This document shows positions 26,842 to 36,008 of a stretch of 64,000 bases of DNA, piece by piece. This DNA is from Octopus vulgaris (taxonomy: Eukaryota): the NCBI GenBank assembly GCA_951406725.2, contig OX597821.1, positions 93,806,001 to 93,870,000 on the forward strand, read 5' to 3'. The notes beneath the pieces were generated by a model. The model ran no database searches, was not told where the DNA came from, and saw nothing but the letters and a program-made list of their open reading frames with translations. Numbering within the stretch: the first letter of the stretch is position 1; the number at the start of each line of letters is the position of its first letter. Both the position numbers and the translations under genes were made by a program.

Positions 26842-27308
26842 TGTAGTGACGTCATTCTTCAGTGTGCGTGTGCGGGACTGGAACCTTCTGGAAAGGCCTA
26901 GGGAAGTTCCCTCAGGCACATGCGCTAAAAACTGAGGAAAAAAATTCTATCGCGTTCCTTGTTAGCGTGGAGACTTGAGACACGGCTATCGAAGAGAGAA
27001 GACGTGTTTAACGTGTTATCAGCCTATGCTCCTGTCCCAGACGCTTGGGATTTGACCGGTTCTGTTGCTGCTGGAGTTTTTGTGAGGTTTATCTCTACAA
27101 ATGTTTAACTTCAGTCTTGCTGTACCTACACCCAGTGGTTACCAATTTACTAACGTATCTTCTTTATGTAAATAACGAAATAAAGTGTCATATTTTCTAA
27201 GGTTGATTTCTTGTTCCTGAAACCGGTAGTTTTTGGAAACAAAGAAGGAAATTGTGTTGCACCCAAACAGTGCAAAAGACCCAACCTGTTCCAGACAGTT
27301 CCTTTACA
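26842..27308 (+). mobile_element. solo LTR related to the Gypsy element at 30539
   Basis: TGTAGTGACG...TTTACA termini, AACT TSD on both sides, U3 and U5 blocks homologous to the 528-bp LTR. Confidence 0.88.
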
Positions 27309-28255: not shown

Positions 28256-30538
28256 AAGAAGACACTTGCTCAGGTACCACGCAGTTGACTCAACCCGGAT
28301 CCATGTGGTTGCGAAGGCCACTCCTGCGCCTATATGTTGTGTCTAATTTTCATTTGCAGCATTTATTCGATAAATGGTAGCCACTCGTTCAACAAATAAA
28401 TTTAGAATAATACCAAGTGCGCAAAGACAATTTTAGAAGCTATGAAGGGATCAGATTTTATGCTAACTTAATTTACCTACGAAAAGTCCTCACTTTATTG
28501 GCTTCAACATCACCCAAAAAATAAGAAAGCATACGGAAATCGATATAATTCAGCTGATGCTAGATAAGCTTATTATTTGGGAAAATATTATTTTTACTTA
28601 TATATCTGTAGAAAATAGTGTTGAAAATATTAAGGTAACACTCGTTTTTCTAAAAGTATAAACAGAGATGCCTAACCCTTTTAAAACGGTTGACGTAAAT
28701 TTACGCATGCAATGTACATTTTTTAAAATCGGTCGACGTAATTATACACCGCCTGACTTAAAACCTGTCGTCTGAGTTAGTAACGGTCCACTTGCCAACT
28801 GATAGGCCGATTAAAAATTTCATGTAAATATTTACAACCTGATAGGCTGGTCCTGTTACTCCGGCTCTGTCAACTTCGTCGTCGCGTCCTGTTTCGTCGA
28901 ATTTATGGTCGTCGCGCCAAGACACACCAAACTCCACCACCTCACGAGTTGTTTCTTCCAGTTCGGACGATGACTCGAAGAGTGAGTATTTTCCTAGTTC
29001 ATAATCAGTTGATTCCGATAGCAATGATGATATTCCGGCGAATCAAAGGTACAGACGGGCAGCCCTGGATAACAGAGTGTCGTGTGGCGAGCGAGAGACA
29101 GTTTCGTCCGATGGCATGGGTTTACTGGTACACCTGGCATAAAAGTAAACCTTGAACATGGAAGTTCGCCACTGGAAATCTTCCACGAGTTTTTGATGGA
29201 TGAAATGTTCCAATATATAGCGGACGAAACGAATGACTATGCTAAAAACCACCCCCAGCATAACAGACCCGTGCATGGTGGTGATTGCTTTCCAACCACA
29301 GGGAACAAGACCAAAGTTCTGCTTGCCCTACATCGTGAAGAAACCAATCCTGGCGTCATATTGGAATCGGAAACCAGCCACGTCGACACCTTTCTCTCCG
29401 GAAACGATGACACGTAATCGATTTTTGGCGCTTCTTCGAAATCTACATTTCAACTCAGGCGAGAACCAGGACGATAGGCTGCACAAAATACGTCCTATCG
29501 TTGATGAAGTGGCTGAAAATTTTAGAATGGTGTATGTCCCCACACAGGACATTTATACGGATGAGAGTTTGTGGAAATTCAAGGGAAGGCTCCGATTCAA
29601 GCAATACAACCCGACCAGAGCTGCCTGCTTTGGAGTTAAGGTTTATAAAGTATGCCAGTCAACTGGCAGAGCCTGTGGGTCCACGTAGAATTACAAAATC
29701 TACGCTGGTTCAGGACAGATTGTCTCTCCCAACGTCTATGCTAGTGTCAACTGATGTCGTGTTGTCGCTGAATTAAAACTTGTTTGACAAAGCCTTCAAT
29801 ATTTATATGGACAACTGGTTTTCCGGTACAGGCCTCTTCCTGCAGCTGCAGGTGAGTAGGACTAATGCCTGTGGGACTAGAAAAAAATATGCCGCCCGAT
29901 CTCCGCAAGATAAAACTTCGAAAGTGGGAAACAGCGCACCGATGCAATGATAGTAACATTCTCGCTCTAGTGTGGCATGATAAGAAAAACGTTTCCGTGT
30001 TATTCACAAGGCATTTTGCAAGCATGAAGAAACAAGATGCAGACGGTAATGCCATAATGAAACCGAGTGCAGTTGTTTCATACGCTGAAGGGTTGGGCGG
30101 GGTCGATCGCTCAGATCAACTGGCGACGGCACACAAATTGGTAAGAAAATTTGTGAAATGGTACAAAAAAATTTTTCTTGTATATAGTTGACGTGTGCGT
30201 CGTGAACTCACATTTGATTTGGCAGATCTTGTTGGTGTGACGGATGGATTGACATTCAGGAATCTGAGGAAGCACTCCGTCGGTTACGACGACGAGGGTT
30301 CCGGTTGATCCGATCAACGGAACAGCCTGCTCGTGAAATTAACGTGTAAGTGGCTTAGCACTCCACAGACACGTGTACCCTTAACGTAGTTCTCGGGGAT
30401 ATTCAGCATGACAGAGGGTGACAAGGCCGGTCCTTTGAAATACAGGTACAACAGAAACAGGAAGTAAGAGTGAGAGAAAGTTGTGGTGAAAGAGTACAGC
30501 AGGGATCACCACCATCCCTGCCGGAGCCTCGTGGAGCT

Positions 30539-31066
30539 TGTAGTGACGCTATACAACAGTGCGCGCGCGCGCAACGCCACTTCAGTTCGCGTGTGCGGGG
30601 TTTGGAGCCTTCTGGAGAGGCAGAAGGGAAGTGTCCTCTCGCGCATGCGCGAAGACTGGAAGAAGGGAATGATGATGTGGCATTTAGCTGATAGGCGAGG
30701 GAGCGTAAAACCTTAACCAAAAAGGGTACAGAGACACGTAGCAGTAAGCAGAAGGCTTTCGATACCAAATTGTTGCAGACGTGTATTTTCTCCGCTCTCT
30801 GGACGCCATATTTGACCAGCTCTGTTTGCTGCTGAAATTGTAAGATTCTTACAAGCGTTAAAGTTCAGCCTTGCCACATCCAGACTCAAGTGGAACCAAA
30901 TATACCACCTTATTTCTTTCTGTGGATAAGACAATAAAGAGTATATATTTTTTACTGTTGCGTTTGTGTTCTTTGACTGGTAGAATCTGGAAATTAAAGG
31001 AACGGAAATTGTGAATGCACCCGAGTTGCACCCCAAAAGTGCAAGAAGCAACTAATTCCCGTCACA
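30539..31066 (+). repeat. 5' LTR (528 bp)
   Basis: matches 35161-35688 except GTCACA vs GTTACA at the end; contains AATAAA and an NRF1-type GCGCATGCGC. Confidence 0.97.
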
Positions 31067-31067
31067 G

Positions 31068-31079
31068 TGGTGACCCCGA
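31068..31079 (+). promoter_or_regulatory. primer binding site complementary to tRNA-Trp 3' end
   Basis: TGGTGACCCCGA 1 nt after the LTR; reverse complement TCGGGGTCACCA is the eukaryotic tRNA-Trp 3' end. Confidence 0.85.
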
Positions 31080-31450
31080 ACATAGAACATTTAACTGAAA
31101 TCTAGATTCTGCCTAGTCTGAACCAATCAACCCGCCGCAGTCATTATCTTTCAACAGTTTGCTTCCACTCGCATCTCAGCACACACGCACGGAAAAATTT
31201 TTTTTCGTTTAAGACGCGACGAAGGTTGGTAAAACAAAAAGAAAAGAATTTTTTTTATTCTCTGTGCACACAGTACAAAAAAAAAAACCACATTTTTTTT
31301 TTGTAAATTGCACATACAAAAATTTATTGGTTCAATTGCTGGTCTTTCTTTCTTTTTTCCCTTTTCCTCATTGCGTCTGTTCAACGTTGATTCGTTGTCA
31401 TTTTACCTTTCCATTTGACAGAATCATCTAGTGGAGTTAAAAACTACAAA

Positions 31451-34400
31451 ATGTCTCTAACATCACGGTCTGCTGGAGTCTGCTCACAAGCTTTTTCAGC
31501 TTCAATTGAGGGACTTTCTAAACAAATAGAAAGTCTCACCAAAAGGTTGGACGCGATGGCAAGCGATGGCAAGCGATTTTCAAAATCGCGGAGTCGCAGC
31601 CGTTCATCGTCACATTCCACACAGTCAAAGTCCGGACTGTGTTGGTACCACTCCAATTTTGGAGAGGAAGCACATAAGTGCATACAGCCATGCACCTACA
31701 AAAGATCTAAACTAGCTTCGGAGAATTTGAGCACGTCAACTTCCTCCTCAACATTTTCTAGTTATCGTGCATTTTTCGTCAAGGATCAAGTGTCGAAGAA
31801 AAACTTCATGGTGGACACTGGTTCTTGTTGTAGCATTTGGCCTTTGCGTCTCACAACCGACAAGCCAAAACGATCTAACGTCACCTTGCACGCTATTGAC
31901 TCGTCACCAATAGCCACATTCGGTCAGATCTCTTTACGCCTTGACATTAATCTTCGTCGAGATTTTCAATGGGTTTTTATCATTGCTGACATTCCGCATC
32001 CTATTTTAGGTGCGGATTTTCTAAATAACTTTGATTTATTGGTAGATGTCAGACGTCGGAGGCTAGTCGATAGTTCGACTACACTCTCCACGCCGACCAG
32101 AGAATCAACCGATTCAGCTCTTAGCCCGACATTTTTTGTTTGTACATCTGGAGACGTTTTTCACTCTCTTTTGGCTTCTTTTCCAGAGCTATTTGATGTT
32201 ACCTTTAAAGTGGCGAAGCCATTACACTCGACACAACACTTTATAACAACAACTAGACCGCCTGTTTTTTCGCGTCCACGGCGTCTTGCACCTGATCGAC
32301 TTAAAACTGCTAGGGCTGAGTTTGAGCATATGCTCCAGCTCGGTCTGATACGCCCATCCACCAGTCCATGGGCATCACCCCTTCATTTAGTTCGAAAAGG
32401 GGATACAGATTTTCGCCCGGTGGGAGATTATCGGCGTCTAAATTCGGTGACGATTCCGGACAAATATCCAATAAGGATTCTAAATGATTTTTCAGCAAAT
32501 CTTCATGGCTGTACCATTTTTTCTAAGGTTGACCTCATACGTGCCTATCATCAAATACCGGTCAACCCAGACGACGTTCCTAAAACGGCAATTACCACTC
32601 CTTTTGGCTGTTTCGAATTTTTGTATATGAGTTTTGGTTTAAGGAACGTTACTAGTACGTTCCAACGTTTTATAGATGAAGTTGTTCGTGGACTTGATTT
32701 TGTTTTCGCGTATGTCGATGATATTCTCATCGCAAGAGATACGCATGAGAATCATCTCCTGCACTTGTCTCAGCTTTTTCAGCGTCTTTGCGACTATGGT
32801 GTTCGCATTAATCCAGACAAGTGTGTTTTGGGGCAACCATCTCTTAATTTTCTCGGTCATTATATTGATTCGAGAGGAATCAAACCACTCTCGTCTAAAG
32901 TCGATGCTATTCAGCGCATCGCACCACCTTCTTCTTTGCGTCAACTTCGCCATTTTTTGGGTATAGTTAATTTCTATCGACGTTTCATAGATCGGTGTGC
33001 AGACAAGTTGTTTCCTTTAACGCAGATGCTAAAGGGCAATTCTAAAAAGGACGCCCGTCTTACTCTTTCAGCTGAAGCACTGTCTGCCTTTGAGTTAGTT
33101 AAAAAGGAACTGGCTTCAGTCCCTGTTTTAGCACATCCAGCTCCTGATGCTCCACTTACTTTATCTGTGGACGCATCAGATTCTGCAGTTGGCGCTGTTT
33201 TGCAGCACACCGTAGAGGGTGAAGTCAAAACTTTGGCTTTCTTTTCTTGCCAGCTAAAGCCAGCTGAACGCAGATATAGTACTTTTGATCGAGAGTTACT
33301 AGCGATCTATCTGTCAGTTCGGCATTTTCAGCACCAGCTCGAGGGACGAGAGTTTGTGATTTATACTGATCACAAGCCCCTTACTTTTGCACTATCTTCT
33401 AAAACGGATAAACTCTCTCCTCGTGCTTTCCGTCACCTGGACTATATTTCTCAATTTACAAGTGATATTAGGCATGTGCCAGGGAAGGAGAACGTCCCTG
33501 CAGATGCTCTCTCTAGACTCCCTGTCAATTCCATTTCCTCTCCTGCAGCAATTGACTTAACTGCTATTTCGCAGGATCAACCACCTTTAGAAGAGTTGGA
33601 TTTAACTTCGCCTAAGTTTATTAACTGTAAGTTTGCCTACCTTCCGCTCCCTTCAACAGAAGGCTCTATTCTTTGTGACGTCTCTACCGGTTCACCTAGA
33701 CCATTAGTACCTGAGAAACATCAACGTTCTGTGTTTGATGCTCTTCATTCACTGTCACATCCAGGTATCTCTACCACAGTAAAGCTTGTTACTGCTCGGT
33801 TCTTCTGGCCCAATATGCGACGATCAATTACCTCTTGGGCACGCTCTTGTTTGAGGTGCCAGAGTGCTAAAGTCCATAGACACGTTCGTGCTCCACTTGG
33901 ACAGTTTTCTTCTCCTGAAGCCCGTTTTCGCCATGTCCACCTTGATTTGGTTGGGCCATGGCCTGTGAGTCGCGGGTTCTCATACATTTTAACTTGTATT
34001 GATCGCTTTTCACGCTGGCCGGAAACTATTCCTATAGCAGACATTTCTGCTGAAACTGTTGCGAAAGCTTTCGTGTCTAATTGGATTTCTAGGTATGGTG
34101 TACCGTCCAGTTTAACCACAGATCGTGGTCGACAATTCGAGTCTGCCTTGTTTCGTGAGTTATCACGAATCCTGGGGATGCATCATATACGCACCACTAG
34201 TTACCACCCCGCTTCTAATGGGATGGTGGAGCGTTTCCATAGGCAACTTAAGGCCGCGTTGCGTGCCTCGCCGAATCCACAGTCGTGGACTGAATTTCTA
34301 CCTATTGTCCTACTTGGATGTCGGACTGCGATTAAAGCAGACCTTGGTTTTTCGTCTGCCGAGCTCTTGTATGGTACCACACTGGCATTGCCTGGTACGA

Positions 34401-34948
34401 TGTTGGTGTCAGACAAGTCACAGTCTCTTAATTTAGAGTCTTATGTTGCTCGAATACGCAGATATTTTTCTGCCCTTCCTCCTGTGGACCCTCGACACCA
34501 AAATCCTCCTTCTAGTGTGCCATCAGATCTTAATTCTTGGACGCATGTTTTTATTCGTGATGATTCTGTCAAGGGACCTCTTGTTACTCCTTACAAAGGA
34601 CCTTTTCGTGTGATTTCCCGCACGCCGAAGGTATTCAAAATTGACATTAACGGTCGTTCGGAGACCGTCTCCGTAGATCGCCTTAAAAGGGCATATTTTG
34701 AGGTGTCCACATCTTTTGATGACCCCACGGCCACAACCATCGTTGAACCTTCACATGCACCTTTGACAACACCACCATTCACACATGCACCTTTGACAAC
34801 ACCACCATTTACACATGCACCTTTATCAACACCAACATCGGCAACACCACCTTCGTCGTCGCAGCCTGCCTCGAACAAACCTTATGTTACGAGGTCAGGC
34901 AGAACTGTTCACTGGCCTAAAAAACTTTCCAAAACTATTTATATTTGA
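31451..34948 (+). CDS. pol: truncated Gag (nucleocapsid only)-Pol polyprotein, 1165 aa from the first ATG
   Basis: CAAAATG start; CWYH-x9-C-x3-C knuckle; protease VDTGS..ILGADFL; RT YVDD; RNase H DAS..ELLA..TDH; integrase H..H..C..C, DLVG, TDRG, VERF, PYKGPF. Confidence 0.95.
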
Positions 34949-35160
34949 CATTCTCAATTGTGACAGTTACAATACTTATTGAACTTTGCTCATTTTGAGT
35001 ATTTTTCTCTTTTTTCCTTTTGGTGCATTTCTTGTTTGTATTGTAAATTCTGCCTTGATTTGTCATATTGTGTGCTATTTGGTTATCTGGTGTCCACCTT
35101 GAGTTTTATAGTCACTACAAGGAATTTTGTTTCGTGCTTACGCACTCGTGGGCGAGCTTT

Positions 35161-35688
35161 TGTAGTGACGCTATACAACAGTGCGCGCGCGCGCAACGCC
35201 ACTTCAGTTCGCGTGTGCGGGGTTTGGAGCCTTCTGGAGAGGCAGAAGGGAAGTGTCCTCTCGCGCATGCGCGAAGACTGGAAGAAGGGAATGATGATGT
35301 GGCATTTAGCTGATAGGCGAGGGAGCGTAAAACCTTAACCAAAAAGGGTACAGAGACACGTAGCAGTAAGCAGAAGGCTTTCGATACCAAATTGTTGCAG
35401 ACGTGTATTTTCTCCGCTCTCTGGACGCCATATTTGACCAGCTCTGTTTGCTGCTGAAATTGTAAGATTCTTACAAGCGTTAAAGTTCAGCCTTGCCACA
35501 TCCAGACTCAAGTGGAACCAAATATACCACCTTATTTCTTTCTGTGGATAAGACAATAAAGAGTATATATTTTTTACTGTTGCGTTTGTGTTCTTTGACT
35601 GGTAGAATCTGGAAATTAAAGGAACGGAAATTGTGAATGCACCCGAGTTGCACCCCAAAAGTGCAAGAAGCAACTAATTCCCGTTACA
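35161..35688 (+). repeat. 3' LTR (528 bp)
   Basis: see 5' LTR. Confidence 0.97.
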
Positions 35689-36008
35689 AGCTTTTAGGTG
35701 TTTTCGCTCAATAAACACTCACAACGCCCGGTCTGGGAATCGAAATCGCGAGTCCGCTGCTCTAACCACTGGGCCATTGCGCCTCCATTCAGGAATCTAT
35801 TGTTCCGTGAAATGATAAAAGCATCAGACCTGCCAAACTACAGAAAGCGTGGACTTCCCCACGTTAGACTCTCTCCTCACCGCATGGTGAAGAGACGTAG
35901 ACATTTTCCACGAATGTTTCCCTCCACCGCCAAGAAGACAAATTCTTCAAAGAGATGTGTAGTGAGAAACGTGAAGTAAAAGATGTTGCGATGGTAGATG
36001 AAATAGGC

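Follow-up and report, generated by a model that had tools for sequence, protein, structure and literature searches.

A capsid-deleted, frame-fused CsRn1-clade retrotransposon of Octopus vulgaris that probably borrows its capsid from full-Gag relatives

The stretch of DNA analysed here, called the window, comprises 64,000 nucleotides of Octopus vulgaris (contig OX597821.1, positions 93,806,001 to 93,870,000). All positions below are counted within it. At 30539-35688, on the forward strand, the window contains a real and young Ty3/Gypsy element of the CsRn1 clade, which is capsid-deleted and frame-fused. Both capsid lobes are deleted behind the native Gag start, and the remaining helix, basic tract and zinc knuckle continue without a change of frame into an intact Pol. 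We favour the reading that this is an enzyme-carrying, non-autonomous parasite, which probably borrows its capsid from relatives with a full Gag.

The integrity of the element is seen at both ends and throughout its coding part. The long terminal repeats (LTRs; 30539-31066 and 35161-35688) are 528 bp each, run from TG to CA and differ by a single mismatch (31063/35685), corresponding to 99.8% identity. They are flanked by the target site duplication (TSD) AGCT at 30535-30538 and 35689-35692, the left one lying within a high-copy short interspersed element (SINE). The empty SINE site, as before the insertion, is visible as loose ends at 30539 in all four sequencing runs compared with the region. 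One base past the LTR lies the primer binding site (PBS) TGGTGACCCCGA (31068-31079), classed as tRNA-Trp type by its match to the published pattern (PMC2582038); no tRNA genes were found in the window. One open reading frame (ORF) of 1165 aa (31451-34948) follows, stop-free from the helix, Arg/Ser (RS) tract and CHCC knuckle to the protease (PR), the reverse transcriptase (RT), the RNase H (RH) and the integrase (IN), with the DTG, YVDD, DAS, HHCC and D-D-E motifs intact. The original prediction, made from the letters alone, had described LTRs differing at one base together with an intact TSD, PBS and PR-RT-RH-IN frame, and was right in each of these.

The capsid deletion becomes apparent by comparison with P0122, a 242-aa Gag of Octopus sinensis, the species of the nearest named proteins. 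P0122 begins with MSLTS as does the window ORF, and the retained part is 90% identical. According to the alignment, about 155 residues are missing in frame, approximately residues 6-160 of P0122, placing the native start and the deletion point (about 155 codons) at 31451-31466. Behind this point the predicted structure shows a long helix (residues 7-39; 31469-31567), probably coiled-coil-like judging by its pattern, which corresponds to helix 174-193 in the P0122 model. It is followed by a basic Arg/Ser tract (31571-31612), which is conserved in full Gags, and by the CHCC knuckle C-X2-H-X9-C-X3-C (residues 64-81; 31640-31693). The 63 residues formerly counted before the knuckle, with a coiled-coil-like segment and an RSRS tract, are thus recovered. 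The ATG, to which a good sequence context had been ascribed, is indeed the start of the ORF; it is to be reinterpreted as the family's own Gag start, behind which the capsid has been cut out in frame.

The nature of the missing stretch was deduced from the structure that AlphaFold predicts for P0122 (11 sequences; predicted local distance difference test, pLDDT, 75.5 on average), which places two helical lobes within residues 1-159. Among 48,161 chains compared with the lobe model, the top 38 matches were all capsids of retroviral or retrotransposon origin. The Z-scores were 8.9 for PEG10 (root-mean-square deviation 4.1, 83 aligned residues), 8.7 for murine leukemia virus (MLV), 8.5 for Arc, 8.2 for dArc1 and 6.4 for Ty3. 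For a protein made of helices, values of up to 8.9 are not high, and the capsid assignment rests on this ranking. Foldseek returned nothing at E ≤0.001 for the full-Gag model, although capsids top its list. Because the model of the deleted stretch ranks capsids first, the deletion, as modelled, takes out both capsid lobes and nothing else. DUF7041 (Pfam PF23055) covers residues 12-86 of P0122, was also noted in P0147, and is likely the N-terminal capsid lobe of the model.

No capsid was detected in the six frames of the leader using Pfam, nor in the six frames of the whole window using a family capsid profile (best independent E-value 9.2). A single-sequence model of residues 1-120 shows one helix (7-39) and is elsewhere of low confidence, so the fold check of the N-terminus agrees with the lack of a capsid that had been proposed, and the leader search with the lack of a gag remnant. 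The predicted complex of the retained helix-knuckle part with the C-terminal part of P0122 scored 0.03 and is not used either way. The 5' leader (31080-31450) is homopolymer-rich and is best read, at the level of sequence, as the native leader of the family and not as a replaced gag, because the ORF start equals that of the full Gag P0122. The deletion itself probably arose via a template switch during reverse transcription; splicing was considered as another origin. By eye, a pyrimidine-rich run ending in AG (31395-31421), which resembles a splice acceptor, lies 30 nt 5' of the start codon.

A second change concerns the gag/pol boundary, which is passed by in-frame read-through at 31694-31715, where full relatives end Gag and shift the frame. 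The counterpart of the stop that ends Gag in the relatives lies at 31713-31715 and is out of frame in the window. In the full Gags P0122 and P0123 the stop follows a few residues past the knuckle, and the gene models P0003 and P0341, which include capsid and pol, skip the boundary. Contigs of other copies show substitutions and one gap relative to the window at this place. The RNA structure at 31700-31800 is nothing unusual (z -0.19). Sorted by codon, 16 read differences comprise 7 synonymous and 9 non-synonymous ones, which mix several subfamilies and do not constitute a selection test.

Reads of four of 23 sequencing runs were compared with the region 30480-32280, and a junction was counted as bridged if a contig extended at least 31 letters to each side. 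Contigs span the leader (31080-31450) in all four runs. A contig of the window variant (31261-31490; no substitutions, one gap) ends 25 letters beyond the deletion point and thus falls short of this rule; the run it belongs to could be the one from which the window derives. A second, diverged variant (19 substitutions and 10 gaps over 196 letters) bridges the short junction in 4/4 runs, which belong to four studies and carry two organism labels. Because of this variant the short junction is not a misassembly. The short form is a diversified subfamily, known from its junction variants and not from separate TSDs in octopus. Neither of the two outcomes named beforehand as refuting was observed: the short structure is not confined to one deleted copy, and no capsid fold was detected in its N-terminus.

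Relatives that carry the same knuckle behind a capsid-like Gag region had been expected and are present in O. sinensis as P0122, P0123, P0003 and P0341. P0003 is 94-95% identical to the window element in the Pol blocks. These helper candidates are O. sinensis proteins. In P0003, P0341, P0147 and P0158 pol is carried along with the capsid. The models P0003 and P0341 skip stretches, suggesting damage, and intact Gags of 242 aa are annotated in O. sinensis. Of the streamlined lineage originally envisaged, its being more than a one-off and the existence of full-Gag partners therefore stand. Particle-free replication is not upheld, nor is a strict pair of gag-only and pol-only elements, since P0003 and P0341 have capsid and pol.

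The same anatomy was found outside octopus. Among 79 metagenome loci (many belong to a single assembly and cannot count as independent), a full capsid is present in 56; pol lies in the -1 frame in 51 of these, is fused in two, follows a same-frame stop in two and lies in the +1 frame in one. The remaining loci are capsid-less and fused (2), have a partial capsid and a frameshift (2), have an unseen 5' end (8) or lack a detected knuckle-protease pair (11). Accordingly, 54/56 full-capsid loci are unfused, whereas both capsid-less ones are fused, LTR-bounded and have different TSDs. L015 and L027 are 4.0-kb capsid-less elements on different contigs, 99.3% identical to each other, with a 48-nt leader and the TSDs AGTC and AGCT. 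L015 has an open ORF of 1162 aa, which is 49% identical to the window ORF, and L027 has a frameshift in PR. Their family includes at least eight proteins with the short start (7 of the 15 listed among 19 cluster members, plus P0321), of which seven read through the fused boundary, whereas the eighth carries a deletion at this place. The partner P0324 contains capsid sequence, terminates at the boundary and shows 92% identity in the retained part. The closest Pol of a full-capsid element among the loci fetched is only 73% identical. In IMG/VR three distant loci were present (29-36% identity). Two loci, L050 (5081-9415) and L019 (5166-9015), combine a full capsid with a gag-pol fusion and are possible intermediates; L050 is open for more than 1000 residues beyond the knuckle.

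A third lineage is seen in gene models of the tapeworms Spirometra/Sparganum. Here, a short start is common to 33 proteins; 31 of them read on from the knuckle into the protease, and 21 have a length of at least 1090 aa. Ten of the 14 capsid-bearing models reach the protease, none of these ten with a whole knuckle, as would be expected if gene prediction jumps over a stop or frameshift. Over the 50 residues before the knuckle the identity between short and full forms is 53% (only two full models are comparable), and in PR and RT it is about 95%. Furthermore, in a quick tree of 143 rows the RTs of both forms lie intermixed. The low N-terminal identity, set against that of PR and RT, points to an exchange of pol between the short and full tapeworm forms through shared particles.

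Thus, three lineages (octopus, L015/L027 and tapeworm) contain the capsid-less fused form beside capsid-bearing relatives of at least 90% identity. A quick tree built from 34 rows picked by hand requires seven changes of the capsid-less state, all of them forced by well-supported branches, and pairs the window element with P0003. Both trees consist of CHCC/DUF7041-bearing relatives, without the references CsRn1, PwRn1 and Boudicca or an outgroup. Judged by these sequences the capsid-less origins are separate, and some of the changes may reflect recombination within families. Two further groups stand outside the count of three lineages. P0011, P0025 and kin form a second tapeworm family of 22 fused proteins, with the knuckle mostly near residue 107, beside 14 full-capsid models; this start falls inside the last capsid helices and may be a gene-model effect. 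P0036, a capsid-less fused polyprotein of 1157 aa with the knuckle at residue 74, has its own branch and is a possible further case, from a gene model alone.

How a capsid-less element could replicate is outlined by the following scheme. Each ribosome starting at the ATG would yield a fusion of nucleocapsid and Pol (NC-Pol), whereas only a small frameshifted share would do so in a normal element. NC-Pol would be incapable of building a shell, and the missing capsid would keep a constantly made Gag-Pol fusion from crowding the lattice. A gag-pol fusion of Ty3 is reportedly limited by capsid supply. With its basic tract and knuckle, NC-Pol would bind the RNA from which it was made, and both would be packaged into particles formed by the Gag of a full-length relative. 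Inside such a helper particle, protease, RT and integrase would be supplied in cis, and the helper would be needed only for its most abundant product, Gag. For Ty3, the fusion product amounts to about 1/20 of Gag, and its protease is activated upon particle formation (PMC4589538); RNA packaging is directed by the NC domain (PMC4974528). That the fusion protein acts in cis is what we infer from the recurrence of the form.

Several points weigh against the borrowing of capsid by an element that needs its own protein. The sister variant in octopus, i.e. the second, diverged one, has lost the start codon in 4/4 runs, and because of this the case for a needed protein is weakened. It is the only short variant among those listed in three of the four runs, and the contigs do not connect it to a particular frame at the gag/pol boundary. 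It may start at an in-frame methionine, residue 36 of the window ORF, which has a good context, or make no protein. In simulations of neutral change the ORF stayed stop-free in 0.6% of the runs at 5% divergence, a point in favour of the borrowing scheme, and in 10% at 2%, a point against it; the roughly 5% of Pol residues that differ from P0003 are not all the window's own, as P0003 itself has diverged too and the pol may have been refreshed by recombination. The open ORF could reflect youth, or a pol renewed time and again from helpers. A further flaw, overlooked in the original prediction, is the weak polypurine tract, with 7/13 purines in comparison to 9-12 in ten other TSD-matched elements. 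The tapeworm case consists of gene models alone, without the underlying DNA, and the fused query biased the protein searches toward fused matches. Finally, L060 (5378-6100) and L061 carry a partial, out-of-frame deletion of the second capsid lobe and keep the frameshift, which looks like plain decay.

These points are in part also those of a simpler explanation. The element may be a passive passenger, whose RNA keeps the packaging and priming signals while every protein comes from a helper; youth and recombination would have left the open frame and the fusion as by-products. The missing start codon of the sister variant fits to this, as does the high LTR identity, which leaves little time for decay, and the frameshift in PR already present in L027. 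Also, mini-Ty1 and mini-Ty3 are mobile with proteins provided entirely in trans (PMC4974528). On the contrary, an in-frame start and the loss of the frameshift occur in three separate lineages, the fusion is found in just two of 56 full-capsid loci, and the 21 long tapeworm proteins stay long despite an N-terminus that is 47% diverged from that of their partners. We regard the passenger as a possible but rather unlikely explanation.

A bolder version of capsid borrowing is that CsRn1-clade elements repeatedly split into a capsid donor and a frameshift-free enzyme donor, with mixed particles as the normal replicating unit and the Gag:Pol ratio set by the copy numbers of both types instead of ribosomal frameshifting. 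It is doubtful that this is so; if true, LTR retrotransposons would have become bipartite on three or more occasions in animals. Even less probable is a mutual division of labour similar to a two-part virus, in which capsid-bearing copies are the shell donors and capsid-less ones the main source of enzymes. The intact O. sinensis Gags next to gag-plus-pol models with skipped stretches, the pol common to short and full tapeworm forms, and the gag-only partners known from wheat (PMC9744471) would agree with it. Nevertheless, the capsid-bearing relatives P0003, P0341, P0147 and P0158 have pol, and old copies commonly give damaged gene models. A gag-only element with the window's LTRs was not seen either, no whole genome having been searched for one.

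Replication free of capsid would mean that helix-NC-Pol assembles with the RNA encoding it into a ribonucleoprotein, in which reverse transcription and integration are carried through in the absence of any shell. The intact enzymes and RNA-binding module of a young copy are compatible with this idea, which is nonetheless very improbable: all three well-supported lineages have a close capsid-bearing relative at the identity given above, the Ty3 protease is activated as particles form (PMC4589538), a gag-pol fusion of Ty3 is reportedly limited by capsid supply, and the RTs of short and full tapeworm forms are intermixed. A single post-insertion deletion or misassembly, for which the short reach of the window-variant contig and the possible origin of the window from that run could be named, is scarcely credible given that, in all four runs, the diverged variant extends past the junction in both directions by over 31 letters.

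The window element shares the CHCC knuckle, the tRNA-Trp-type PBS and the 4-bp TSD, hallmarks of the CsRn1 clade (PMC2582038), as well as the PR-RT-RH-IN order, with CsRn1, PwRn1 and AgCR1-14. Single fused ORFs occur in CsRn1 and PwRn1. In contrast, the Gags of the AgCR elements are full length (ORF1 of 756-984 bp in 14/14; PMC2582038), whereas the window has about 85 Gag residues. An autonomous CsRn1 element has a full Gag with a capsid domain, which the window element lacks. A similar case is the mouse intracisternal A-particle (IAP) 1Δ1, in which an internal deletion created an in-frame gag-pol fusion in a non-autonomous element; its fusion protein gives support in cis, and most prominent among new insertions are those of this subtype (PMC6466679). 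Unlike the window element, IAP 1Δ1 is a retrovirus, has lost parts of both gag and pol and needs both in trans (PMC6466679), whereas the Gypsy element described here, by its sequence, appears to have all Pol domains intact and the capsid alone gone.

Barley BARE2 has a disrupted GAG and otherwise intact genes, and is presumed to use the GAG of BARE1 (PMC9744471). The window element resembles it in having no capsid coding, an intact pol, a close capsid-bearing relative and more than one junction variant. It differs from BARE2, a member of the Copia superfamily, in that it keeps start and nucleocapsid and loses the frameshift. In BARE2 the gag start is reportedly absent. Semi-autonomous Gypsy partners giving part of the proteins are also described for wheat RLG_Sabrina/WHAM with RLG_Wilma (PMC9744471). 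Here, RLG_Sabrina/WHAM is the mirror image of the window element, since GAG and protease are kept while RT and integrase are absent (PMC9744471). New in comparison to BARE2 and IAP 1Δ1 are the clean loss of the capsid, the loss of the frameshift, the complete Pol and the recurrence. A capsid-less fused CsRn1 form is not described in the literature searched, which left Repbase-type entries and most subscription journals outside, nor in the accessible part of PMC3286476.

The remaining features of the element are as follows. The aspartic protease occupies approximately 31766-32080, with DTG at residues 122-124; it was assigned by its motif and by alignment to relatives, Pfam giving no match. The RT core with YVDD lies at 32390-32863 (PF00078, E 1.6e-27), RNase H at 33074-33457 (PF17919, PF17917), and the integrase zinc finger and core at 33707-34210 (PF17921, PF00665). 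In the integrase tail (34755-34830) a 30-nt unit is present in about three copies, P0003 having one copy fewer. The weak polypurine-tract-like stretch (35143-35160) is also similar to the SINE flank immediately before the 5' LTR, probably by chance. Upstream of the element, a solo LTR of a related subfamily (26842-27308; 68-78% identity in blocks, TG...CA) is flanked by the TSD AACT. Broken transposase fragments (29221-30188; PF13843, which we take to be piggyBac-like) lie just upstream of the SINE that bears the element.

Partly coding LTR parasites have so far been known from single cases such as BARE2 and IAP 1Δ1, whereas here one anatomy recurs within a clade. This recurrence suggests a repeatable evolutionary route. 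For the annotation of such genomes it means that capsid-less copies pass as autonomous if they are classified by their RT. Furthermore, these elements represent natural material for studying by what route Pol gets into a particle when it has no capsid contacts, and whether a defective genome that makes Pol in cis can gain the upper hand over its helper.

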